In this document: piece after piece, positions 1 through 46,648 of the stretch
How the letters are laid out: every line of letters begins with the position of its first letter
Numbering within the stretch: the stretch's first letter is position 1
IMG/VR virus record: IMGVR_UViG_3300020045_005985
Location: 1 to 46,648 of that record
Length of the DNA stretch: 46,648 nt
Strand: one strand, 5' to 3'
Origin: a virus
Lineage: Duplodnaviria > Caudoviricetes
Position numbers and translations under genes: made by a program
The notes under the pieces: generated by a model
What the model saw: only the letters and a program-made list of their open reading frames with translations
Told to the model about the DNA's origin: nothing
Databases searched by the model: none

Positions 1-121
1 TAATGGTAATTTCGTATTCTGCTTTAAGCTTTACCCATGTTTCAACTATCGCAGGGTATGTTACTCCCCCTATAGTTCTTTCTGGGTGTATCTCCTTCTC
101 AAACTCACCAATTACCAAGGA
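1..121. repeat. Terminal overlap, left copy (identical to 46528-46648)
   Basis: Exact 121-bp match taatggtaat...attaccaagga lying inside a CDS, typical of an assembler circular overlap. Confidence 0.95.
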
Positions 122-277
122 GTCATGGTAGTTACCTTGTGCTAAAGGATCTTTCTTCTTTGGACATTCCATTGCTGGTTTGCCCCAAATAGAAGAAACC
201 TCATACTCTCCTGTTTCTGATTGCAAGTTAGCAATAAGCTCTTTAGTAATTGTGTTGTAAACTTTTATGTCTTTCAT
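1..277 (-). CDS. 5' part of a 193-aa protein spanning the junction (continues 46527 to 46223); possible fibre-associated protein or chaperone
   Basis: ATG at 277 (MKDIKVYNTITKELIANL...) is in frame with the 46223..46645 ORF and starts just after the fibre stop codon. Confidence 0.8.
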   Translation of the reverse strand, partial: MKDIKVYNTITKELIANLQSETGEYEVSSIWGKPAMECPKKKDPLAQGNYHDSLVIGEFEKEIHPERTIGGVTYPAIVETWVKLKAEYEITI

Positions 278-279
278 AT

Positions 280-3200
280 TTATATCCTATCTATGCTGAA
301 GTAGTGGGACGTTGTAACATTGTCTAGTGTTATTCCTGCGCTTGCCCTTAGTGAAACCGTGTCTCCTTGATTTAGTCTGAGCGTGGCTGACAACTGTCTT
401 ACTTGGCTGCTAGTCTCGGCAACACCTGCAAATACGTTTGCTACAGTATTGACATAAACCTGTACATGATAAGCACTCGACGCATTTGCTCTAACCATCC
501 CAGTAAGAAGATATCTTCCACTAGCAGGAGCAGTAAATATACTTCCACTCCAAGCACCGTGAGAGTCAGAGGTTTCTGTAAAATCTATATTGGTAACATT
601 TGCAGTACAAACAGTTGAACCATTCCCAGCACCACTAGCATATACACTCTCACTAGCCGCCATAGTCTGTGAACCTACGTTGGATTTTTTGATAGTCATG
701 TGATGTAAGCCAGCATCGTTTACCACAGTAATGGTTTGGTTAAACCTAAAATCAATATAGTCATTCTTTTGTAAAACTACAGTTCCATTAAGCTCAAAGA
801 TTACGCTAGTTGAGGAAGCTGGAGCGGTCACTGTCCTAAGGTATGAGCCATTTTTATTCATGTTTACTAATAGTGAGGAATTGGCAGCACTAACATAAAC
901 TAGCCCATTAAAATCATACGTTCCAGTCTCCGGAGCTGTAAATTTAGTACCGTCCCACCCTGACCCTGCGCTATTAGAAACTGTGATAAACGGTATCTGC
1001 CCCGAAGTAGCAGTTACAGATTGTCCTGCGTTTCCTGCTGCTATGGACAAAATCTCCTTGTTCATCATAGTCTCGCTCATGACTACACCGGAAGACCATC
1101 CAGCAACCGGTACTTTAGCGAAGAAAGAGATATAGCTATTATTAGTAAGGATATCGTTACCGTTTAGTGGGGTAAGTCCTGAGTGGCTTGCATCTTGGAA
1201 ACCTACGTTAAAGTAAGTGTCGCCACCAGTTCCTAACATCACATACTGGCTAGCAGCCGCCACAGTAGAAGATCCGAAACCTACTGTTGTAACAGAAGCG
1301 TTTTTAGTAGTATCTATAGTTAGCCCAGCAGGTAGCCCTATTTGAACCTCTGATGCTACTACCGTTCCTGCTTGAACGTATCCTTTCACTTCTACCGAGT
1401 CACCAACACGACGATAGTACATTTCACTTGATGAGATAGTACCAAGTCCAGATACAGTCGGGACATAAGCTTCCCAAGGTGTAACAGGCGCACCATTCAC
1501 AATCTTCTGATCGTTAACTTGTACGTTATCAAATTGAACAGTGTAAGCCGCTGCGTTTGTGGATTGAACATGGAATATTAAACGATATGAAGTAGAGTTG
1601 TAAGATGTCTGGAAACTAGCTGCAAACTTACCATTTGTTCCACCTATCAAGTTAACTGGTACTGAGGCAAGAAGAACAGAATTAGTCACATCGTAAACAT
1701 AAATTCCAATGTCGTTGTCTGCGTAATTTGCTGAAGTAGTCGCTTGGAAATTGATTGTCTGTACAGTCGCTTGATCGCCAGTATCTATTGAGAAATCGTA
1801 TGAGACTCCTTCTCCTTGGGCATCGTTTGCGGATTTAGTAATCAGGAAGTCGGCCAAGCCACGAAGAGGGCCAGTAGTGTTTCTTGCAAACGATAAGTCA
1901 GTAAGAGAACCACCTGTACCGTTAACAGGAGCAGCTACCGAACCATCATTGTAACCTGCCCAACCTGTAGTATCTCTCTCAGCGTTACTATTTGTAATAT
2001 AAGAGAAAACTCCTGCCTTAGCGTAAACGTCTTTCCCAATTTCTACTCTATCTGCCGTTACTATTGCACCCTTGGTGGCGTTACTAGTTGAAGATAAAGT
2101 AAGGTCGTTAGAAGCAGCCGTTCCACCGATAAGAGTTTGTCCACCTGATCGTCCTGCGAGTAGAGCGTATTGAGTAAATATATCAGAAGTGTTGTCAACA
2201 AATTCTAAAGCACTAACACCAGCGTTTACTCTTACTATATCTAAAGCAGCACCAGTATATGCCGCAGGAGTATCGGTAAGGGCCAAGAAATTGGTTGCAC
2301 CAGCACCAGCGGCAATTTGAGTCTCTACACCTGCACTAGTTAAAGTGTAAAAATATCCGTCAGCCTTTGGATAAATTTTCATATATCCAGCAGCAGGGTT
2401 GGCAGGAGTGGCAACAGTTTGCATTGTGATAGGATCGTCGAACGTCTTATTGGTGAACGTTACAGTACCAGTAAGCCAGTTGAAAAACTCTAAAGCACTC
2501 TCACCAGCGTTAACTCTTACCATGTATCCAGCAGAACTTACAAAAGTGGCAGGAGTATCGGTTAAAAGGGTAAACTCAGATACTCCTGAACCACCTGTAC
2601 TAGTACCAAACATAGGACGTATATCGATCCATTGAGAAGACGTTGAGGCAGGGAAAGCTGTCGCATTACCTCTAAGTACCAAGGCACTAGAAGGAGCAAT
2701 CTCTCTAAGACCTGGCGGTAGGGTAGGACAAGCATCCGCTATAGCGTCAGCTAACTGAACGTGACCTGTGGTCGGATAAACCCAATGAATACGACTATCG
2801 GAAGCAACATAAAAACATGACTTGTAATACTGAGCAGCTACTACCGCTGCTAGGTTTGTACCATTGTTATATTGTGTAGTATTGATTTGAGCATTTGTAT
2901 CACTATCCCAAGCACCTGCTACTTTATAGTGTCTAACCATAGCTGTCGTTCTGGATACTAATGAAGAAGTGGTTATCTCTTTATGAGCATCTAAATAATA
3001 CTCACCAGCAGAGGCCGCTACGTCCCAAACATTCGTTACGTCAGTGTCCTCAGATACGACTACCCCTTCAGCTACAGCCACCGGAAATAACTCTTCAAGA
3101 CCATGAGTTATGGCAGCTTCACGAGTGTTTAAAGCCTCTTCTTGATGTAAAAATACAATGTCACCATCTTGGCATCCAATAGTAGCTACACGCACTTGTG

Positions 3201-4197
3201 GGAAAGCAGGTTTAGTAGTGGATAAAGTAAGGGTTGCGGTAGAGTCCCAGTAAAGATAATTAACAGCGTTATTGGTACAGCTAGCACTCCCAGCGTTTAT
3301 TTCTACCGGAAGTTTTGTTGTAATGTCGTAAATAGTACCGGTACTCCAAGAGAACGCAAGACCGCCATCGTCTGTTAAAGAGATGGTACGGAAAATTCCT
3401 TGGTTATTGATACGGTTAAACACATTCGTTACAGAGTCTAAAGCATATACTTGAACGTTTGAAGCATCACTGTAGTCGCTTAATTGAATCCATTCGTTGT
3501 TTCCAAGATCGGTAGCAAATGTTCCTGAAGTGTGATTTGTTAGTGCTAAATACACCAAGTTATTATTATGAATAACATCACCTATTGCGTAAACTGTAGC
3601 TGTAAGCCATGCGGATATTCCACCACCGCCACCTACATCAACCCAACCTGTTCCATTATAAACGTTAAGTTTTGCGCTAGTTGTGTTGAAAACACAAAGC
3701 CCAGTAGCAGGAGTACCTATAACACCTCTTTGAACCTCTGTCATAGCCGGACAAGGACGAGAACCCTTGGTGGTTGAAGCTACGTTAAATATTGCAGAAG
3801 AAGGAAGAACCGCACCGATGGTTGCAGTATCAAAAATCATATCGGATCGGTTAACCCAATTAGTACCATCCCAAACTAGCATGTCATTCGCTACCGCTCC
3901 GGTAATGTCAACATCACCAAGACCGCTAACAGATGCTAAACCTGCATCAACATAAGCTTTTATGCTTTGTTGAGTAACCAAGGCAGTAGGAGAGTCAGAA
4001 GCTAAGTCATCCTCGTCCAACACATCGTCCACTGTCACCGAGCTAGAGTTAATTATGACAGGAGCAGTAATCTCAATATTACCGCCTGTGGCGTTAGGAG
4101 CTATTGCATCGGTTTTAATAGTCCGTAAAGACTGAGTAAAAACTAAAGTTGATAAGCTGATAAGTATAAAAATTACTAATAGTTTGATTTTTTTCAT
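280..4197 (-). CDS. Large mosaic fibre/adhesin, 1305 aa, with signal peptide, CBM5/12-like module and two C-terminal C1q-like domains
   Basis: MKKIKLLVIFILISLSTLVFT leader; fibre motifs DEDDLASDSPTALVTQQSIKAYVD, LGDVDIT...MLVWDGTNWVN, FxxLTDTP...VRVNAGxSALEF x2; WLTATVYAIGDVI..NNLVY; FTAPETGTYDF and FTAPASGRYLL. Confidence 0.85.
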   Translation of the reverse strand: MKKIKLLVIFILISLSTLVFTQSLRTIKTDAIAPNATGGNIEITAPVIINSSSVTVDDVLDEDDLASDSPTALVTQQSIKAYVDAGLASVSGLGDVDITGAVANDMLVWDGTNWVNRSDMIFDTATIGAVLPSSAIFNVASTTKGSRPCPAMTEVQRGVIGTPATGLCVFNTTSAKLNVYNGTGWVDVGGGGGISAWLTATVYAIGDVIHNNNLVYLALTNHTSGTFATDLGNNEWIQLSDYSDASNVQVYALDSVTNVFNRINNQGIFRTISLTDDGGLAFSWSTGTIYDITTKLPVEINAGSASCTNNAVNYLYWDSTATLTLSTTKPAFPQVRVATIGCQDGDIVFLHQEEALNTREAAITHGLEELFPVAVAEGVVVSEDTDVTNVWDVAASAGEYYLDAHKEITTSSLVSRTTAMVRHYKVAGAWDSDTNAQINTTQYNNGTNLAAVVAAQYYKSCFYVASDSRIHWVYPTTGHVQLADAIADACPTLPPGLREIAPSSALVLRGNATAFPASTSSQWIDIRPMFGTSTGGSGVSEFTLLTDTPATFVSSAGYMVRVNAGESALEFFNWLTGTVTFTNKTFDDPITMQTVATPANPAAGYMKIYPKADGYFYTLTSAGVETQIAAGAGATNFLALTDTPAAYTGAALDIVRVNAGVSALEFVDNTSDIFTQYALLAGRSGGQTLIGGTAASNDLTLSSTSNATKGAIVTADRVEIGKDVYAKAGVFSYITNSNAERDTTGWAGYNDGSVAAPVNGTGGSLTDLSFARNTTGPLRGLADFLITKSANDAQGEGVSYDFSIDTGDQATVQTINFQATTSANYADNDIGIYVYDVTNSVLLASVPVNLIGGTNGKFAASFQTSYNSTSYRLIFHVQSTNAAAYTVQFDNVQVNDQKIVNGAPVTPWEAYVPTVSGLGTISSSEMYYRRVGDSVEVKGYVQAGTVVASEVQIGLPAGLTIDTTKNASVTTVGFGSSTVAAASQYVMLGTGGDTYFNVGFQDASHSGLTPLNGNDILTNNSYISFFAKVPVAGWSSGVVMSETMMNKEILSIAAGNAGQSVTATSGQIPFITVSNSAGSGWDGTKFTAPETGTYDFNGLVYVSAANSSLLVNMNKNGSYLRTVTAPASSTSVIFELNGTVVLQKNDYIDFRFNQTITVVNDAGLHHMTIKKSNVGSQTMAASESVYASGAGNGSTVCTANVTNIDFTETSDSHGAWSGSIFTAPASGRYLLTGMVRANASSAYHVQVYVNTVANVFAGVAETSSQVRQLSATLRLNQGDTVSLRASAGITLDNVTTSHYFSIDRI

Positions 4198-4198
4198 T

Positions 4199-5128
4199 TT
4201 AATTCCTTGCTAATTCCCAATATCTTTGTTCTGCGGAGTCATAAACTAGCGTTAAAGTGTCGTTAAGCCCTAGAGTACAGTCACCATTCAACATGCAACC
4301 ACCGTTACCGTCACTATAAGGAATTGTTAAAGTATTGGTATTGCTTGTACCTCTTAGAAAAATAATTGTTCCATCACTGGGTGGAGAACTAAAAGGAGAG
4401 TTTGCAACAGTTTGCGCACCACTGTTTCCTTGGACTTTTAAGAATTGTTGTATTGCTGCGTTGATAGTAATTGTTCCACCGCTTGCAATGCTTTGAAGTG
4501 CTGAAACATACATTCCACCACCAACCAAGGAAGCAACCCAAGTAGTTCCATTCCAAACCGCTAGTTGTCCTATTACGCTTGCAGTTGGGAAAACTCTTGC
4601 AGCTAGTTCGGCAATGGTAAAACCATATTCAAACCCATCTCCACCATCTGTTACTTTTAAATACCTACCGTCAGCGTCAGTAACCCCAGGAGGGAATTGA
4701 GTATCGAATGTTTCTTCGTTGTCAGCGTCATGTATTCTTAGAGATTGTTTACCTCTATAAGCTAATCGCTGTATTGCACCTGCCAAGAAATCCATTGCTG
4801 TTTCAATTACTTTTAACGAGAAACTTCCTTTGTTTCTAAATTCGTGTGCTTGTGTTGGAGCATCGTTAGCTAGAAGCAAAATTAAGGTGTATCCAGCGGT
4901 TAAGTTACTTGTCAGATTGACAGTACCTCCACCTTCTACAGCATCATAGGTAACACTACTTAAATAAGTAGTATCAGTACCTAGCACTCTTTGAGTCTCA
5001 GCACCAGTATCGTCTATTTCAACGACTAGTAACTGCGATTTTGCCTCAATTTTAAAGTTAAAAGTATAGGCCGATAATGAGCCTGTACCAAGGTATGTTT
5101 CTTTCGGAGCGTAAGTTGTTCGTGACAT
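4199..5128 (-). CDS. Short tail fibre/adaptor with a T7 gp17-like N-terminal virion-anchoring domain
   Basis: N-terminal YLGTGSLSAYTFNFKI...GGTVNL...IETAMDFLAGAIQRL pattern; position after the ejection proteins. Confidence 0.8.
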   Translation of the reverse strand: MSRTTYAPKETYLGTGSLSAYTFNFKIEAKSQLLVVEIDDTGAETQRVLGTDTTYLSSVTYDAVEGGGTVNLTSNLTAGYTLILLLANDAPTQAHEFRNKGSFSLKVIETAMDFLAGAIQRLAYRGKQSLRIHDADNEETFDTQFPPGVTDADGRYLKVTDGGDGFEYGFTIAELAARVFPTASVIGQLAVWNGTTWVASLVGGGMYVSALQSIASGGTITINAAIQQFLKVQGNSGAQTVANSPFSSPPSDGTIIFLRGTSNTNTLTIPYSDGNGGCMLNGDCTLGLNDTLTLVYDSAEQRYWELARN

Positions 5129-5148
5129 AATAAAATCCTTTCATTAAC

Positions 5149-8100
5149 CTATTTTAATGTCAATTTATTTATCTTTTCTATTTTCTGCCTAACAAATTTT
5201 CTCACTTGTCCAACAGTTTTAAAACCCTCAAATAATTTTTTATTCTCTACTACATTGGTCAGCTTCTCGTTATCGTTAGACATCAGTATTGAAACATAGT
5301 CGTCTAATCCAAATCTATGCGCTCCATACAAGTTTGCGTTATCAACTTCAACTTGGTAATTTGCAAGCCCACGAGCATTTTGCTCTAAACTATATTTCAT
5401 TGCTTTTTCTTGTTCACCTGGATCTTTAGAAACTCTTCCATCTTCCGTCAAACCAAGGTCAGGGTTTTCTTCTGAGATTTCTTTCCATCTCTCTTCGGTG
5501 AATTGATAGACACCAGCACCACCAGTAACAGGATCTAACGCTTTCCAATCGTCTGTCTTAAGTACTTCCATGCTGTCTTCTGGAATCAAATTCTCCATAC
5601 TTGCACCAGTATTAGGAGCGTATTCTGCTTGGATTTCTTTAAGTGCAGCAATCGTTTCTTGAGCTTTTGGATCATCTTTATGTTTTTCACTAAACTTATC
5701 AATATCTTCAGATAACCCGACTATTTCCCTTTGAACATAATTCATAAAGTTTTCTGGTATTGATGTTTCTTGAATAAAAGTATTAATTTCCATTAGTCCT
5801 TTTACAGGGAATCCACCAACCAAATAACTTCCACTGAACAATAAACCTCTAATTTCTTTTTTGCTTAATTCGTTTCCGTTCATCCACTCACGAACTCCAA
5901 CTATTCCTTGAACTACGTCTGTGAAAGTTTGAGTAATCGGAAAGTTAACTCGACCATAACCACCTACCGCAAATTGAATATCTCTTACAAGAGGTACAGA
6001 ACTAGCGAAACCTTCAATTGGAGCTGTTGCAACATAAGAAGCAGTATTAGATAAAAATTTTCCAAAATCTCCCATATTTTCTACATTTGCCAAGTCTGTA
6101 ATCGGTGTTTCTTCATCTCTAAGAGTATCAATATATAACTTGGTTAAAGTGTAAGTGGTGAGTAATGCTCCGAGGTCTAAGGCAGCATTTTTAGCGTATA
6201 AAGCTGCTTTACCTGTATCGCCTGACTTGTAAGCAGATACCGCTTCTTTAGATTTTCCAAGAATTTTACGGTTTTGAGAAGTAAAAGTGTTAGCTTGCGA
6301 TCTTAAGTCAGTATAAAACCTTGTAAACATTCTCATTTGCCCTATTTTCTCAAGAGCATTTTTGTCTATGTTGGCACTTGTAGTAAGGGCCAAGTCTGCC
6401 ATTTGTTTTGCATAATTTTTACCAGCAACCTGTATTTCTTCAGGAGTCATTTTGTCTAGTTTGCTTTGAGGGAAATTCTCAACTGCACCATCTACAAACT
6501 GAGCGTATGCCGCATGTGTCGCAAGTACCTTGTTGTAAATGTCCATCTTTTTAAGACCATACATTGCTGCTTCTACGAAAAGTTCTTTACCCTTTTTGAG
6601 CATGGCCAATTTATTAGCATAAGGTGTGTTATTTGATTTAGGTATCAAGTCGTATTGTGATTTTACTAAACTGTCGTCTATGGAGTCTTGGTTAAACTTA
6701 AGATCAGGATTAATTTCAATAGCATGTTCGTATAATTTGTTAAAACTACCGTCAACCAAACTTTTCAATACTTGACCTGTTGATTTAAGAAGATATGTAG
6801 GGCCGTTTCTTCCCAGTCTTAAACTTGCAGAAAACATTGATAAAGGTTGCATTAAAACAGAACTTAGTTTAAATCCAAGAGTCCCAACACTAAAACCTTG
6901 TTCAAGGTGTTTAAACAAATTCTCTACAGCCTTTCTTTCACCAGCGTAAGGACTAAGAATATCTTCACCATGGTTTTGTCCAACAGTCTCAATTACTCCG
7001 CTTGTCATTGTATTGTATTTTTCAACCCCGACAGTAGAAATAATAGCGTTACTGTATATTGGATTTTTTAAAAGTTTTAAAACGTCTGATCCAGACTCTC
7101 GATATGCCAAGTCATGGATATGTTCTTCAAATGCTCCGATAAATGTTCTAAAATCTGTGTCTAAAGGTCTTGAAGATTTTTTTCTATCAATTAGTCGCCC
7201 TTGTTCAGTCATTTCAGCAGATCTTAGTAGACTGTAAAGTTTCCCTTCTTCTCCCTCACCAAACATTGATACAGACTTATCTCCTAGTACTTCTAAAAAT
7301 CTTGACGCTCTCTCTGTTGGGGACGTTGCTAAATAATCAAGAGGAACATAACCACCCTCGTAAACTCTCCCTCGGTGAGTAAAAGGAACTCCTTTAACCA
7401 TGTTAGGTTTTACTCCGGTTGTTCGTTCGTGTAAGTCCATGGCTTCTTGTTCAAAACTTTTAAAAATATTTATATAGTTTTGAACAAGCTGAGCATCCTT
7501 GCTTGTTAATACCCTATCTAAGACTATTTCAACAGACTCAACAGTCATTGCTTCACCTGTTGTAGCATTTTTAAAATTTTGAATTCTTTCTCTAGCGGTA
7601 GGATCACCAAGATTTGACATTAATCGCCAAAGGTCTGACTTTGCTAATTTACCGTTACCTAAATGTTCGTATCCTTTAAACTCTGGTATTTCTATAAACT
7701 CGTTAAAAGCTGCGGTAAACTCTTTTTCTCCATAAGCAGCAATGATTTTCTTTTGTTGGTTTACAACATCAAGATTTCTTTGTCTTTCAAAAGTTTCTGA
7801 ATTAATCATTGGTTGAGCTAAAATATTGTAATGTTTTTCACCTAACCGTTCTTTATCTAGAGTGGTAACAACATTTTTGAAGTTACTTATCATCGAACTA
7901 AACTTTCCAAAAAGCTCTCTTGATCTTTGTGTTACGTCTTTTGAATTTTTATTTTTAACAGCTAATAGTCTTTTTTCATCGTATGATGGATGGTTTTGAA
8001 GGTCTAAAACAGCATCTTCAACTATTGCAGCTTCCGTTTCAATTTGATTCATTTTCTCACGTTTTTCAAGTTTCTTAAGAAGTTTGTTTTTAAGTTTCGC

Positions 8101-19355: not shown

Positions 19356-19650
19356 AACGTTCCCTCTCCAATTTAGATAATATTGAAGCAGAAATTTCAA
19401 AGTCTGCTTCGCACACAAGTTTATAAATAGAATTACCAGCTCGCAAAAAGCCTAAATACTCGTGAAGAATATTTCCTTCCATGCTTTGCTCAGGTAATTT
19501 TGCAACATCGAAACTTTTAAAGAAATATCTAAATAACTTAATTCCTTCGCTCGATTTCAAAATAGAAGCAATCGCAAGAAGCACATCTCTATGTTCTAGT
19601 GCTTCTTGACGATCCTTTTTCTCAAAATATTTTTCTAATTCTTCATTCAT
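19300..19650 (-). CDS. Small head-module protein (Bbp19-like)
   Basis: 116 aa; ILKSSEGIKLF...GFLRAG pattern; position before the scaffold. Confidence 0.6.
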   Translation of the reverse strand: MNEELEKYFEKKDRQEALEHRDVLLAIASILKSSEGIKLFRYFFKSFDVAKLPEQSMEGNILHEYLGFLRAGNSIYKLVCEADFEISASILSKLERERYDDINEQYRIENGTDSES

Positions 19651-20486
19651 TAATTAATATCTGACCATGTGCCGATAGTAGAAACTTGCGCCCACTGAGA
19701 AGCTGAAATAGCTTCGATGGTTACAGAGTTCCCAACAGTAGCGTTTCTAATTGCATCGCCAGCAGCGTTGGCCAAGAGTACAATTATGTCAGCATCGTCA
19801 GGATTAACATCAAAGTTTGCAGCGTTACCTGTAATGAAAGTTAAGCGACAACCTAATACAGCAGACGCTTCAGGAAGTTCCATTTGTACAGCACCAGTAT
19901 TGATGAATGTTGATCCACACTGAGCAGCAGTAATAGTTGTTGCAGTAGCAGCTACTTGTTTTTGTCTAAATCCAGAAAGTGCATCTCCACCGTCACCAAG
20001 TATAGCACCAGTGAATGTTCCACTAGTTCCAGCTACAGCACCAGTAAATGTTCCAGTAGTTCCACTTACTGCACCACTGAATACACCAGCAACACCTGTT
20101 ACGTTTCCAGTAACAACTAGATTTCCACCAGTTGAAAGAGTTAGTTTGTTAACAAGCGATCCTGAAGTGTTGTTAGCTACAGTAAAAGCGTTTCCACTTG
20201 CCACTGAACTAACTGCCCAAGAGTCTCCATTGTCATCGGCTTGGTCAGCATTAAGAGTTAAAACAGCGTCACCAGCTTCGATACCTGCAATAGTGATATC
20301 TCCTGCGTCTAAGGTTGGAGATGATACCACGTTGAAAACACCATTTTTTGATCTAGTACAAGTTAATCCTGCACCACAATTAAGTCGATTAAAAATCTTA
20401 AGACTTGTTCCGTCACTTAACCCCTCAAAAGCAAATGATGAAAAACTCACCATTAAAAAAACTAAACTTAACAAAAAACTTCTCAT
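19650..20486 (-). CDS. Signal-peptide-bearing fibre-like protein, 278 aa
   Basis: MRSFLLSLVFLMVSFSSFA leader; Gly/Thr repeats GVFSGAV/GTFTGAV/GTFTGAI; GGAGG RBS. Confidence 0.75.
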   Translation of the reverse strand: MRSFLLSLVFLMVSFSSFAFEGLSDGTSLKIFNRLNCGAGLTCTRSKNGVFNVVSSPTLDAGDITIAGIEAGDAVLTLNADQADDNGDSWAVSSVASGNAFTVANNTSGSLVNKLTLSTGGNLVVTGNVTGVAGVFSGAVSGTTGTFTGAVAGTSGTFTGAILGDGGDALSGFRQKQVAATATTITAAQCGSTFINTGAVQMELPEASAVLGCRLTFITGNAANFDVNPDDADIIVLLANAAGDAIRNATVGNSVTIEAISASQWAQVSTIGTWSDIN

Positions 20487-25043: not shown

Positions 25044-25742
25044 TTAAAACGGTCTAGGTATCTTAGGTGTTACATCTATGGTTACTTGCTTCTCACGCTC
25101 GTCTGCTCTCCTTGCGCTCTCCAAGAGTATGTTCTGCATGTCTCTTGTAACAGTATGCTCGACCTTGGTGGTGTTTTTAAACATCTCCTTCTCACGTCCT
25201 GTTAACTCAGCAGCTTTAAGTTTATCGTAAAACTCATACTCTATTATCTCACCTACTATGATTTGTTTTTTCATTCCATTGATGTCTGAGTCTTGGTTAT
25301 AGATGTTTCTAACCTTCATCTTCTTGATGTTCCGTCTTGCTTCAGGTTCTACGTCTGCCAAGTTACTCTTGAAAGATCCGTCTTTATTCTGCATCATGAT
25401 AGGATCAAACTCTACAACTTCTTTAACTCTCTCAAAAATCTCACTGTTATCGAATCCGTATTTAACTGATGATTTGTCGGTAAGTGCTTGGATAGCGTTA
25501 GCTACGTCAGCACTGTGTCTTAGTCTGTAGCCTACCTCACGATGTATCCCTGCTTCTTCTGATGCTTGTCTAATTGATTTGCATCTTACGAAAGCATCTA
25601 TGAAGCTTATTACGTGAGGTACGTGTCTATGACTTTTCTTAAGAGTGGTGTCTAGTATATAACTAAACTCGTTAATGGTTAACTGCCCTGTCTCTTCTAT
25701 CGGTTCAGGGATAGGGAAGTCAGATTTATCTAAGTCTTTCAA
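25044..25742 (-). CDS. terS: Terminase small subunit
   Basis: HTH-like SIRQASEEAGI, YDKLKAAELTGREKEMF, KVEHTV; upstream of terL. Confidence 0.8.
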   Translation of the reverse strand: MKDLDKSDFPIPEPIEETGQLTINEFSYILDTTLKKSHRHVPHVISFIDAFVRCKSIRQASEEAGIHREVGYRLRHSADVANAIQALTDKSSVKYGFDNSEIFERVKEVVEFDPIMMQNKDGSFKSNLADVEPEARRNIKKMKVRNIYNQDSDINGMKKQIIVGEIIEYEFYDKLKAAELTGREKEMFKNTTKVEHTVTRDMQNILLESARRADEREKQVTIDVTPKIPRPF

Positions 25743-26065
25743 ATCTCTGTGCCCATGATTAATGTAACTGCTCCATCTGTTCCGGAGATAGTCTTTACAT
25801 TACCTCTAACAAACTTCCATGGTGCGTCTAAATAAAAGCTATCTGAAGTAGCTACAGTACCAAGGGTAAGAGCTAGTCCATCTACTTCTATAAAATTAAC
25901 CCCATCGTTAGACACTTCTACGCCCACTGTAGAAGCTCCTGCGCCAGCGGAGGTTGTTCCAGTAAGGTGGAAGGTTTTCTTCGTTCCTAGAGGCATTACA
26001 GCCCCTCCAGCGGCTACGGTAGCAGCATTGCTTAACAATGTGTGTGTTTTGGTGATTCCCATCAT
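25739..26065 (-). CDS. Small beta-sandwich protein, probably structural; first late gene
   Basis: 108 aa, Gly/Thr/Ala-rich, VEVSNDGVNF and PWKFVR; AAGGAG RBS. Confidence 0.7.
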   Translation of the reverse strand: MMGITKTHTLLSNAATVAAGGAVMPLGTKKTFHLTGTTSAGAGASTVGVEVSNDGVNFIEVDGLALTLGTVATSDSFYLDAPWKFVRGNVKTISGTDGAVTLIMGTEI

Positions 26066-27481: not shown

Positions 27482-27769
27482 ATGAAAACCCTAGTTATCC
27501 TATCCCTATTGAGCTTATCTTTATCGTTATCTGCTGCTGACGTTGGTTGTGCTAAGATCGGCAAATACTTCAGACCTGTAACACCAGATGCAATTAAATT
27601 AGCTGTATATCACAATGTAAGTACATGCGACGGTAAAGCCTTTAAAGCAACTTTAAAAGCCAAAGGTGTTAAGATGTCAGAGGTAAAGGCCACTCCTGAT
27701 ATGATCAAGAAGTATGAAGATGCTATAGCCAATAAATCAGCTAAGAAGATCAATGGTTTTGAGTTTTAA
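27482..27769 (+). CDS. Secreted hypothetical protein, first early gene (start reassigned to 27482)
   Basis: GGAG RBS; MKTLVILSLLSLSLSLSA signal peptide; two Cys. Confidence 0.8.
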   Translation: MKTLVILSLLSLSLSLSAADVGCAKIGKYFRPVTPDAIKLAVYHNVSTCDGKAFKATLKAKGVKMSEVKATPDMIKKYEDAIANKSAKKINGFEF

Positions 27770-28100: not shown

Positions 28101-28493
28101 ATGAGAGTATTATTAGTATTAAGTTTTGTTTTGTTATCCGTTAACGTCTTGGCCAATTATAAGCAATCTACTAAATCCGTAACAGGGACATATTATAATG
28201 GTGAACTTGATGCGAGTTATGCCGAGTTGACCAAGTTATTTGGTATACCTGATAGCGCAATGATTGACGACAATAAGACTACAATACAATGGGATTTGGA
28301 AAACGCTAAAGGTGACGTTGTAACAGTATACAATTGGACAGAGGATAACAATCAATACAATTGGCATATTGGTTCTTTTGATCTTAAGACGGCAAATGAT
28401 TTTGTTAATTGGTTACAATCTAAAGGTATTAAGGCCAGAGTTTATGTCCCTAAGAGTAAATCACATAACATTAAAGTAAAGGGGTTAAAATGA
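28101..28493 (+). CDS. Secreted hypothetical protein
   Basis: MRVLLVLSFVLLSVNVLA signal peptide; SYAELTKLFGIP..KTTIQW..TVYNW..WHIG domain. Confidence 0.8.
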   Translation: MRVLLVLSFVLLSVNVLANYKQSTKSVTGTYYNGELDASYAELTKLFGIPDSAMIDDNKTTIQWDLENAKGDVVTVYNWTEDNNQYNWHIGSFDLKTANDFVNWLQSKGIKARVYVPKSKSHNIKVKGLK

Positions 28494-28755: not shown

Positions 28756-29010
28756 ATGAGAGTATTATTAATATTAAGTCTTATCTTGGTTATCTCATGC
28801 GGTAAAGGTGATGAGGCCCCAGCGGCCCCTATAGTATTGCCTAAGATGGTATATTGCGCTCAAGCTGATGGTTACAAAATTTGTGAAGTAAGGCGTGAAA
28901 GTGAAGTAAGCATATTCGATAAGTACACTGATACAGTATTATTTGGCACAATTGAAAACGCTAATAAGATGCTGAAAGAGAAATCACATAATGTGAGACT
29001 TAAAGAATAA
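28756..29010 (+). CDS. Lipoprotein
   Basis: MRVLLILSLILVISC lipobox-type leader; GAGGTG RBS. Confidence 0.75.
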   Translation: MRVLLILSLILVISCGKGDEAPAAPIVLPKMVYCAQADGYKICEVRRESEVSIFDKYTDTVLFGTIENANKMLKEKSHNVRLKE

Positions 29011-29271: not shown

Positions 29272-29859
29272 ATGCGAGTAAACAGATTGTTGCTTACAAC
29301 GTTACTCAATTATTTCAACGTTGTAAGTAAAGACGTAACACGGCCACAACTAGAATGTGTACACTTGGTTATTAAGGACAATGTGGCCACACTTGAGGCA
29401 ACAAATGGATATGTGGCAATAACATCAAAACATATCGTAGAGGATAACGGTCAAGAATGTAACATTCTAATTAAGAGTAACTCTTTAAAAACTTTAAGCG
29501 TATTCTTATCAGAGCATAAGAGTGAAAACATGTTTTCAATTGAAATCGATCTTGAGAATAATTTTTTAAAAATATTAGTAAATCATTATTCAATTATTTT
29601 AAATCTTTTGAATAGAGATTTCCCAAATTTGCTTACCGTTATGCCTAGCCTAAGAAATGAAGAAGTAAATAACTTCATAATTATAAATCCTGACTTAATT
29701 TATATATTAAGATTGGCCGTTTACGGTAAATCAAAAGTTAATATAATAAAATTCAATTTCCAATTGCCTAAGTCTAAAGATGCGCCAATCAGGATTGACC
29801 ACGAGTATTTGGAGATTAACCATACCATGTTATTGATGCCGATAAGAGGTAACAAATGA
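29272..29859 (+). CDS. Truncated DNA polymerase III beta-clamp-like protein
   Basis: SKDVTRPQLECVHL, ATNGY, DFPNL, C-terminal LLMPIR. Confidence 0.75.
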   Translation: MRVNRLLLTTLLNYFNVVSKDVTRPQLECVHLVIKDNVATLEATNGYVAITSKHIVEDNGQECNILIKSNSLKTLSVFLSEHKSENMFSIEIDLENNFLKILVNHYSIILNLLNRDFPNLLTVMPSLRNEEVNNFIIINPDLIYILRLAVYGKSKVNIIKFNFQLPKSKDAPIRIDHEYLEINHTMLLMPIRGNK

Positions 29860-35045: not shown

Positions 35046-35570
35046 ATGGACAATATTTTTCAACAAGCTTTAAAACATACTTTAGAATTTGAAGGGATAT
35101 TCTCCAATGACCAAGACGACAGAGGCGGTAAAACCAAATATGGCATAACGGAGAATGTTGCTAGGGGCTATGGTTATACAGGCGAGATGATGAATTTACC
35201 GTTAGATTTAGTAGAACAAATTTATAAAAAAGACTATTGGAATAAATTGAAATTAGACCAGATATCTATTTACTCGGTTGCTATTGCTCTAAAGGTTTTC
35301 GATATTGCTGTAAATTGTGGAGTACACAGAGCATCAAGGTGGCTACAACAAGCCGTTAACTGCTTATCACATAATACCCCCTTGGTAGTCGATGGTGTCA
35401 TAGGTGACGACACTATTGTAAAAATTAAAACTTTAAGACATCATTTAGATATAATAACGATAGTTAAAATGTTGAACATATACCAAGGACAGCATTATAT
35501 AGATATTTGCAGTAAAAACGAGACACAAAAGAAATTTATTAAAGGTTGGTTTAGACGAATTGAAATATAA
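35046..35570 (+). CDS. Endolysin, glycoside hydrolase family 108 with a PG-binding domain
   Basis: EGIFSNDQDDRGGKTKYGIT, IYKKDYW, FDIAVNCG, DGVIG, FIKGWFRR. Confidence 0.92.
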   Translation: MDNIFQQALKHTLEFEGIFSNDQDDRGGKTKYGITENVARGYGYTGEMMNLPLDLVEQIYKKDYWNKLKLDQISIYSVAIALKVFDIAVNCGVHRASRWLQQAVNCLSHNTPLVVDGVIGDDTIVKIKTLRHHLDIITIVKMLNIYQGQHYIDICSKNETQKKFIKGWFRRIEI

Positions 35571-45491: not shown

Positions 45492-45692
45492 TTATCCTTT
45501 GCTAAGTAAAACAAATAATACTGCACCAATTGTCGGTATTAAAGATCCAGCTAAACCCCATATTCCTGATTTAACTTTCAGTGTTGCTATCTCTACTAGA
45601 ATGTTTGTTTGTGTAGTTTTTATACATTCTTGAGTAATCTTTATACCTTTTATGTCGTCTATTAAGAAACCAAGTAACTCCTCATTGCTCAT
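45492..45692 (-). CDS. Holin-like protein (coiled coil plus C-terminal transmembrane helix)
   Basis: IATLKVKSGIWGLAGSLIPTIGAVLFVLL; end of the late operon. Confidence 0.55.
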   Translation of the reverse strand: MSNEELLGFLIDDIKGIKITQECIKTTQTNILVEIATLKVKSGIWGLAGSLIPTIGAVLFVLLSKG

Positions 45693-45694
45693 TT

Positions 45695-46186
45695 TTAAAA
45701 TCCTTTTAGTTTTCGCAAAAGATCAGAGGTATTTCCGTATAACTCTTTTACTCTTAGGTACAGATCTTTAGGAGTTATTTTATCAAAATTTGTATCTTCC
45801 GGATACCCTAATTCTTTTGCGAAAATCCTGGCATCAAACTCAGAACAAATTAATTGTCTCCAACTATTATTAATACTTAAATTTAACAGAATGACAACAT
45901 ATTGGAAATAACCATATTTTGTCCCAAGTTTACCTTGAGCTATGGTTCGTATCTCATTTACTCGCTCAGGACTTAAATCTAGTATAAATTCTTTTATAAT
46001 TACATGGGTTTTTAACCATTCTTCTCTTTTACTAAATTTTACACCAGTAGTAAGAGATTCCCACATTTCGTCATAAAAATCTAAATAAAAAGAAGTGTGA
46101 TAGTACTGAGTACCTAAATATCTTTTAATCGCCCATGCCCAAGGAGTCCAACTCTTGGTATCTGAAAATACTATTCTTACTCTCAT
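45695..46186 (-). CDS. Permuted papain-like (NlpC/P60, YaeF/YiiX-type) amidase/peptidase
   Basis: His first (YYHTSF), then LGTKYG, catalytic ICSE and ITPKDL. Confidence 0.8.
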   Translation of the reverse strand: MRVRIVFSDTKSWTPWAWAIKRYLGTQYYHTSFYLDFYDEMWESLTTGVKFSKREEWLKTHVIIKEFILDLSPERVNEIRTIAQGKLGTKYGYFQYVVILLNLSINNSWRQLICSEFDARIFAKELGYPEDTNFDKITPKDLYLRVKELYGNTSDLLRKLKGF

Positions 46187-46222: not shown

Positions 46223-46648
46223 CTATTTCAAAACGCTGCTTAGTAGTGCCAGTAAATCTTCTTGTAGTTCTTTATAAGAAGGATACTTTGTAATATCCAT
46301 TTCAGCAATTAACTTATATGCTTCTTTAATATTACGCTCAGCAATTCTAAGCTGGATTGCTTCAAAGTCTTTCTTCATTTTATCACGTTCTTTTAAGTCA
46401 CGTTTAATTAGCACGTTATCGCCAATAATTAAATTCTGAGCAGCTACACCAATTGCGTCTACTTGCGCACCAATGTTGATTTTAGATTCTAGCTTTTTCT
46501 TTAATTCATGTTCCTTGGTAATGTCGGTAATGGTAATTTCGTATTCTGCTTTAAGCTTTACCCATGTTTCAACTATCGCAGGGTATGTTACTCCCCCTAT
46601 AGTTCTTTCTGGGTGTATCTCCTTCTCAAACTCACCAATTACCAAGGA
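46223..46648 (-). CDS. 3' part of the 193-aa junction-spanning protein (starts at 277)
   Basis: Frame is continuous across the 121-bp overlap. Confidence 0.8.
   Translation of the reverse strand, partial: SLVIGEFEKEIHPERTIGGVTYPAIVETWVKLKAEYEITITDITKEHELKKKLESKINIGAQVDAIGVAAQNLIIGDNVLIKRDLKERDKMKKDFEAIQLRIAERNIKEAYKLIAEMDITKYPSYKELQEDLLALLSSVLK
46528..46648. repeat. Terminal overlap, right copy
   Basis: Identical to 1-121. Confidence 0.95.

Follow-up and report, generated by a model that had tools for sequence, protein, structure and literature searches.

A two-gene tail fibre with a predicted secretion leader in a podovirus: probable maturation in the periplasm and docking on a leaderless anchor

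The accepted view is that tailed phages assemble in the cytoplasm. Virion proteins that pass Sec/YidC and signal peptidase are known from the filamentous phages, whose pIII and pVIII remain membrane-bound and enter the particle as it is extruded, with neither a tail nor lysis. Here, we analyzed a tail fibre locus in the IMG/VR virus record IMGVR_UViG_3300020045_005985 (positions 1 to 46,648; "the window" denotes this whole stretch of 46,648 nt), in which a leaderless anchor gene is followed by a long fibre gene whose product starts with a predicted secretion leader. To judge from the sequences, this split fibre is present in the window phage and in most of its relatives. In the reading that we consider probable, the fibre is matured in the periplasm and docks on the anchor at lysis.

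The closest described systems are branched receptor-binding proteins. In the Klebsiella podophage KP32, gp37 carries a T7-type anchor and a T4 gp10-like branching domain, and this domain binds the N-terminal peptide of the anchorless gp38 (PMC13352976). The locus analyzed here shares with KP32, and with the branched systems of G7C and CBA120, a virion anchor and a gp10-like branching domain on the first protein and, by prediction, an anchorless second protein that docks by its N-terminal peptide. It differs in that the first protein has no receptor-binding domain of its own and in that a secretion leader precedes the docking peptide; the main text of the KP32 paper does not contain the word "signal". 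The N-terminal part of CBA120 TSP4 (XD1-3; PDB 7rej) has the fold of the C-terminal domain of our adaptor, whereas CBA120 has a myovirus baseplate anchor, several XD domains, and enzymatic tailspikes, and export is unmentioned in the abstract (PMC8825819). For Porphyromonas phages, passages of one report describe signal peptides on capsid and unknown proteins and interpret them otherwise (PMC10367356). Among the titles and abstract beginnings listed in searches of the open-access literature, no description of an export step in a tailed-phage fibre was found. All parts of the system are known, and within that literature the export step is the new element.

The two genes and the segments on which the argument turns are as follows.

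4199..5128, minus strand: 309-aa leaderless anchor/adaptor
4742..5128, minus strand: T7 gp17-like tail anchor domain, adaptor residues 1-129
4202..4516, minus strand: T4 gp10/XD-like sandwich, adaptor residues 205-309, predicted fibre docking site
280..4197, minus strand: 1305-aa mosaic receptor-binding fibre with a predicted N-terminal secretion leader
4135..4197, minus strand: predicted Sec/signal peptidase I (SPase I) signal peptide, fibre residues 1-21, with a predicted cut before Q22 (sequence and heuristic)
4087..4134, minus strand: predicted docking peptide, fibre residues 22-37

One base separates the two genes. The initial annotation had described the fibre start as basic, then hydrophobic, then polar, and this leader-like character was confirmed by a hydropathy heuristic, by conservation in homologues, and by controls. 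Three of the first five residues are Lys; the hydrophobic core follows (best 10-residue Kyte-Doolittle mean, 3.49), and V19-F20-T21 precede Q22. This leader is the sole 19-residue segment with a hydropathy above 2.0 in the whole fibre, and a sequence scan found neither a lipobox nor a Tat motif. By the heuristic, the features of a Sec/SPase I substrate are all present, namely, a basic n-region, a hydrophobic h-region, and small residues at -3 and -1; the residue at -1 is small in all 12 type-A fibres. A Shine-Dalgarno-like AAGGAA lies immediately 5' of the fibre start. A true start downstream of the leader, which would have undone the proposal, was looked for: there is no in-frame ATG, GTG, or TTG between codons 2 and 53, so that no downstream start yields the mature N-terminus. 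Positions 4000-4330 are spanned gap-free by single contigs in three public lake-water runs and by two contigs in a fourth, and therefore the leader and the gene junction are not assembly artefacts.

Across related loci, leaders were called where the best 10-residue hydropathy near the start was at least 2.3 and the net charge before the core was positive. The rule misses visible leaders: seven of the nine listed unflagged proteins with a Cys pair (see below) show one by eye. We examined 48 related loci, of which 41 had a called gene downstream of the anchor; among the seven dropped loci, four end within the anchor, one is a fragment, one (L047) is a fused single gene, and in one (L021) the overlap was too large for the script, although its fibre has a leader visible by eye. 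The gene after the anchor bears a leader in 38 of the 41 loci, and in 23 of 25 after dereplication, so that by this heuristic the leader is conserved. In the controls, none of 115 anchor homologues was flagged, and neither were the remaining conserved proteins of six relatives, apart from 2 of 151; thus, the leader signal exceeds chance. In the window, the heuristic found no leader on the portal, scaffold, capsid, nozzle, ejection proteins, or anchor. Among 120 listed homologues of fibre residues 1-260, 48 were flagged; what the others have in common is mostly just a short stalk repeat. In five type-B fibres, the leaders are 41% identical, compared to 77% for the mature start. A scan for single-protein loci gave no match, and in an atlas search with fibre residues 22-260 every score was below 0.9. 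One relative has two tandem anchor-fibre pairs (L022:5281-10232), with a leader on both fibres.

An N-terminus of this kind could also be a membrane tether, or a pro-peptide removed by a phage protease, on a fibre that stays in the cytoplasm and docks in the normal way. The Thr at -1 of the window fibre is in line with such a role, as is a protein of the window's scaffold region that PHROG labels a protease; prohead proteases have been suggested, in passages of the Porphyromonas phage report, to cut leader-like peptides of capsid proteins (PMC10367356). However, the leaders, even where divergent, keep the basic n-region, the hydrophobic core, and small residues at -3 and -1, and the Cys pairs described below follow the leader. 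A basic N-terminus also favours translocation of what follows, according to the positive-inside rule. We consider this alternative quite unlikely.

The three leaderless loci represent two phages (L012/L039 and L043). In L012 and L043, the fibre starts with Met-Gly exactly where the leader-bearing type-B fibres would be cut. An intermediate protein in both repeats the adaptor C-terminal domain, and the product of the third gene has the same N-terminus, resulting in a domain-peptide chain. These leaderless anchor-intermediate-fibre chains (L012:10001-14531 and L043:2156-6735) are a natural cytoplasmic control. In an anchor tree of 32 rows, 6 of 29 branches are well supported, so that the order of leader gain and loss is not resolvable from it; the split, leader-bearing L002 groups with four fused fibres in a clade that is supported.

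The placement of the anchoring domain on the separate 309-aa gene, as originally proposed, was corroborated by PHROG tail-fibre matches over residues 5-125 and by an AlphaFold model (predicted local distance difference test, pLDDT, 88.9). The anchor in this model matches those of Carin-1 (8ck1; Z 14.8, root-mean-square deviation (rmsd) 2.1, 123 aligned), LME-1 orf22 (9efk; Z 13.7), and T7 gp17 (7boz; Z 11.3). LME-1 orf22, whose stalk also recurs here, carries anchor and stalk on one chain of 658 aa, whereas the window has two genes, one of them leader-bearing. The 309-aa chain ends with the XD-like domain and lacks a receptor-binding domain, as expected of a pure adaptor. The best fold match of this C-terminal domain is 6o38 (Z 10.9). 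TSP4 (7rej; Foldseek E 4.9e-5; Z 7.3, rmsd 6.2, 135 aligned) is a middling match, and TSP4, a KP1 baseplate chain, and the Pa223 spike together range, likewise middling, from Z 6.5 to 7.3; 9f4a has Z 6.5.

Three observations connect the start of the mature fibre to this domain. First, Q22, D30, and N35 are invariant in 11 type-A fibres. Second, across 26 dereplicated pairs, similarity over the initial 60 residues of the fibre goes along with similarity over the 105 C-terminal adaptor residues (Spearman 0.57, partial 0.57; 0 of 5000 permutations), whereas the correlation with the anchor domain is 0.05 (26 pairs), and that for windows past fibre residue 60 falls to 0.06-0.20 (23 pairs). Third, a 3:3 complex model of adaptor residues 170-309 and fibre residues 22-91, a neighbour complex that the initial annotation had suggested modelling, scored 0.93, compared to 0.00 for the best of three controls, and predicts docking on the adaptor C-terminal domain by fibre residues Q22-T37. 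Of 157 solved pairs, 116 reach the score mark, compared to 2 of 215 pairs that were mismatched; both figures are only roughly valid here. Contact agreement between the runs was at least 96%, and the pLDDT of the partners was at least 95. The modelled interface uses Q22-K28, D30, and N35-T37, and includes three of the four positions that are invariant among the first 35 mature residues of the 11 type-A fibres. On the adaptor, the predicted docking residues are 270-271, 280-285, 290, and 308, and the interface residues are slightly more conserved than the rest (0.70 vs 0.53, p 0.04).

Further along the fibre, the following modules were recognized.

3928..4053, minus strand: stalk segment, residues 49-90, homologous to LME-1 orf22 residues 459-500 (9efk_AE, E 1.5e-6)
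3628..3789, minus strand: small module, residues 137-190, with the C149/C168 pair, likely a disulfide
3526..3612, minus strand: CBM5/12-like module, weak, below the Pfam cut-off
1504..2010, minus strand: CBM4/22-like beta-sandwich, residues ~730-898 (4bj0, Z 15.5)
673..1065, minus strand: first C1q/TNF-like domain, residues ~1045-1175 (Z 16.0 to C1q)
283..654, minus strand: second, terminal C1q/TNF-like domain, residues ~1182-1305

The model of the distal half comprises the CBM4/22-like domain, which also matches CBA120 TSP4 (5w6h, Z 15.3) and the Kp7 fibre (7xyc, Z 13.5), a middle domain, and the two C1q/TNF-like domains, a class known to be trimeric. Among 120 listed homologues of residues 720-1305, six carry the same anchor fused N-terminally, and 102 are unflagged for a leader; the longest contigs listed for these matches are no longer than 118.5 kb. 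The LME-1 fibre matches twice, by its stalk to residues 49-90 of the long fibre and by its N-terminus to the anchor. Because of the anchor-fused distal-half homologues and the stalk match to the solved LME-1 fibre, the 1305-aa protein is, by homology, a virion fibre. The likely ligand of the CBM and C1q/TNF tips is a glycan or a protein of the host surface. In two lake runs, ~380 bases over the first C1q-like domain (positions 660-1057) are swapped for another sequence of similar length, which indicates tip exchange among close strains.

An exported fibre with such tips could dock and yet act mostly before, or apart from, the virion: the surplus would mask the receptor, with only a fraction built in, and the effect would be superinfection exclusion or progeny kept off cell debris. 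Export and receptor-binding tips are both supported, and this possibility fits all of the docking evidence. Two observations point the other way. The fibre gene of the late operon starts one base after the anchor gene, which suggests matched amounts, and a promoter scan of positions 1-6000 gave no excess over shuffles (10 sites vs 13.1). We consider mainly extra-virion action unlikely.

The initial annotation had raised another use of an exported fibre, namely, display on an infected Bdellovibrio-type predator, where a MAT-like fibre would change what the host binds and thus which prey it takes. The MAT fibres of Bdellovibrio bacteriovorus, as presented in parts of one report, are defined by a common ~130-aa domain after the leader, which is beta-rich and has no PDB homologue (PMC10769870). 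According to the same source, they have in common with the window fibre a signal peptide, a length of about 1000 aa, a mosaic architecture, disulfides, and TNF/C1q-like tips, and the layout of leader, mosaic fibre, and TNF/C1q tip is that of Bd2439 and Bd2734 (PMC10769870). The window fibre lacks S74 and has C1q/TNF-like tips, the fold class also of the non-S74 MATs. The low GC content of the window and its use of Shine-Dalgarno sites are compatible with such a host. However, MATs are chromosomal and displayed on the cell, whereas the window fibre gene belongs to a late operon, in a virus record that is complete, and at the position of the ~130-aa domain the fibre has a peptide predicted to fit the adaptor and a virion-type stalk. 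Fibre residues 22-250 match only LME-1 orf22 in PDB; the comparison with MATs was made from their published description.

Display on the host requires a hold on the cell, and scans of the mature fibre found no membrane anchor, no lipobox, and no S74 motif or S74 Pfam match. The region after the leader fits a virion adaptor instead, and the same parts occur leaderless and anchor-fused. No Bdellovibrionota-linked name turned up among 30 homologous proteins looked up, none of which carried an organism name, and no integrase was seen among 30 window proteins scanned by profile; thus, nothing points to a lysogen that could benefit. Both motifs named in the initial annotation are present in the fibre (at positions 691 and 141). 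Their proposed resemblance to Bdellovibrio fibres found no confirmation: neither the PDB sequence searches nor the listed fold matches contained a Bdellovibrio chain, which does not in itself exclude a likeness. We do not file the fibre as a MAT; it works like the second fibre of a branched system plus a predicted export step. Thus, of the two options first offered, the fibre folded in the periplasm and docking on the adaptor is supported by leader conservation, Cys-pair coupling, co-variation, the complex model, and the anchor-fused homologues, whereas the adhesin affecting prey choice found no support, with no host assigned, and is very unlikely.

Export would give the fibre access to an oxidising compartment, and its cysteines are consistent with this. 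The Cys pair of the 137-190 module is present in 33 of 41 leader-flagged homologues, compared to 3 of 25 unflagged ones, and in a second homologue set the counts are 54 of 61 and 9 of 32; exactly one Cys occurs in 1 of 230 copies of the module. Among the fibres of the clade, the Cys content is 0.96% with a leader (n=19) and 0.30% without (n=5). The C149/C168 disulfide is likely formed outside the cytoplasm, as far as these sequence patterns indicate, and stabilisation by disulfides is most likely the gain from export.

Assembly on the periplasmic route would run as follows. Sec would export the leader-bearing fibre, SPase I would cut it before Gln22, and disulfide formation and trimerisation would take place in the periplasm. 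The 309-aa anchor, since it has no leader, would join the tail in the cytoplasm. If the leader works, anchor and fibre therefore meet only after the inner membrane is breached; at lysis, holin action would mix the compartments, and the new N-terminus of the fibre would dock on the C-terminal domain of the anchor. Late addition has a precedent, as finished P22 heads accept tailspikes added later.

Several observations weigh against this route. The leader calls come from a hydrophobicity heuristic, not from SignalP, and the Thr at -1 of the window fibre is atypical, the other 11 of the 12 type-A homologues having A, G, or S. Export is dispensable in close relatives (L012, L043, and the fused form L047). 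The decay of co-variation could equally be produced by short-range linkage, and L007 and L038 combine window-type adaptors with little similarity in the first 60 fibre residues. The complex model may echo solved branched complexes and, because it was run without the leader, does not address the need for cleavage. The mature fibre holds seven Cys, an odd number; among the 120 distal-half homologues the Cys density is 0.38% both with (18) and without (102) a leader; and neither the Cys nor the co-variation counts are independent of ancestry. Further points on the same side are that the gene after the fibre, by position a possible chaperone, is leaderless, that no spanin pair was recognized in the window, and that host assignment gave no result.

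The other genes that bear on export and lysis are the following.

2..277, minus strand: 5' part of a 193-aa leaderless gene after the fibre, which crosses the terminal repeat into 46223-46526
19650..20486, minus strand: 278-aa leader-bearing late protein beside the portal gene, possibly a head spike (weak evidence)
35046..35570, plus strand: GH108 endolysin with a peptidoglycan-binding domain
45492..45692, minus strand: holin candidate of 66 aa whose single hydrophobic segment is C-terminal

The leader of the 278-aa protein, which is encoded between the portal and the scaffold region, is strong, and the protein contains four Cys. Of the 25 capsid loci that are readable in this region, 16 encode a homologue and the others do not; leaders are seen in those homologues displayed. 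The 278-aa protein weakly resembles the Pa223 capsid spike (E 0.71) and clusters of PF26209, and it gave no profile match to the adaptor (probability 0.6%); by these comparisons it may, tentatively, be a head spike. A possible partner is the product of a 108-aa leaderless gene before the small terminase (25739-26065, minus strand), with a weak match to a domain of head-spike fibres (NF048003, E 0.017). A combined use is conceivable, in which the surface machinery of the host first displays the fibre during infection, shifting prey or surface binding, and the fibre then docks at lysis, with the 278-aa head spikes exported likewise; we regard this as highly improbable, and if it were true, the phage would infect a predatory bacterium.

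The two leader-bearing late proteins, together with the lack of a recognized spanin pair, would also suit an exit of particles or sub-assemblies from the cytoplasm by a route other than classical lysis, with maturation in vesicles or in the periplasm. An endolysin and a holin candidate are present, however; in relatives, lipoprotein genes follow the fibre; and the leader is on no core virion protein. Such an exit is extremely improbable. The endolysin gene lies among plus-strand genes of the early region, distant from the holin candidate. Export leaders also occur on the products of three small plus-strand early genes (27482-27769, 28101-28493, and 28756-29010), of which the last has a lipobox as well; these are candidates for superinfection exclusion or envelope change. 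A 163-aa late gene (45695-46186, minus strand) matches phrog_1128 (E 1.3e-9), and its His...Cys-Ser-Glu pattern may resemble that of permuted papain-like enzymes. A tblastn search of the fetched loci gave no match for the 193-aa, 163-aa, and 66-aa proteins, the endolysin, or the three early proteins.

The window, a complete virus record, has direct terminal repeats (122-nt overlap). Profile matches assign its late module to the epsilon15/BPP-1 type of podoviruses, with terminase, portal (T7-type), scaffold, GP7 capsid, Bbp16, adaptor, nozzle, and three ejection proteins; the order of the GP7 capsid, Bbp16, portal, nozzle, and T7 gp14-like ejection genes is the same as in that group. It differs from the group in its lytic-type replication module and its split, leader-bearing fibre. 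The epsilon15 capsid is 37.6% identical to that of the window, and the nearest cultured phage capsids reach only ~40%. A domain resembling the DNA polymerase III beta clamp (29272-29859, plus strand; PF02767, E 4.9e-5) has a longer homologue-type gene in the relative G008 (L080:16813-17706). Other relatives encode a protein with a match to CarF-like plasmanylethanolamine desaturase (L085:16612-17148, minus strand, in G017; E 6e-12, far under the cut-off) and a collagen-like repeat protein after the fibre (L088:11321-12571, plus strand, in G020).

The host was sought by genome scan, homologue names, plasmid match, cultured phages, and NCBIfam. The scan gave a single locus (L029:1-312), where 312 nt of an adaptor gene terminate a 3.4-kb contig of a Zixiibacteriota bin, beside housekeeping genes. 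This locus may be chimeric and was rejected as evidence on the host; a capsid query gave no match in that bin, which says little because the bin may be incomplete. One distal-half fibre homologue was named from a Thermoanaerobaculaceae bin. No plasmid match was found, the cultured phages offered only the ~40% matches, and NCBIfam found no host-specific family among 100 accessory proteins of six relatives. Bacteroidota generally avoid Shine-Dalgarno sites, whereas in the window such sites precede 36 of 40 ATG genes, compared to a background of 12%, so that a Bacteroidota host is disfavoured. The motif D-[ST]-[AILVMT], a glycosylation motif, is not enriched (7 vs 7.1 in shuffles). By eye, about 7 of the 24 leader-bearing fibres have Gln at +1, and Gln22, on this sequence comparison, looks tied to one docking type. 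In most Bacteroidota SPase I substrates, in contrast, Gln occupies +1 (mean 71%, the Q-rule), as stated in a part of the source (PMC5837995).

Close variants of the window occur in lake-water metagenomes, and if the periplasmic reading holds, the clade represents widespread freshwater podoviruses that complete the virion across two compartments. The export and disulfide machinery of the host would mature their receptor-binding fibres, which would join the virion at lysis. Gaining or losing a leader of 17-23 residues could then shift a virion part between compartments, and "secreted" phage proteins would often be mis-annotated virion parts. The predicted interface of two small domains, together with natural leaderless and fused controls, makes for an unusually testable system and, if the reading is correct, a route to disulfide-bonded binding domains on the tails of phages in laboratory strains.

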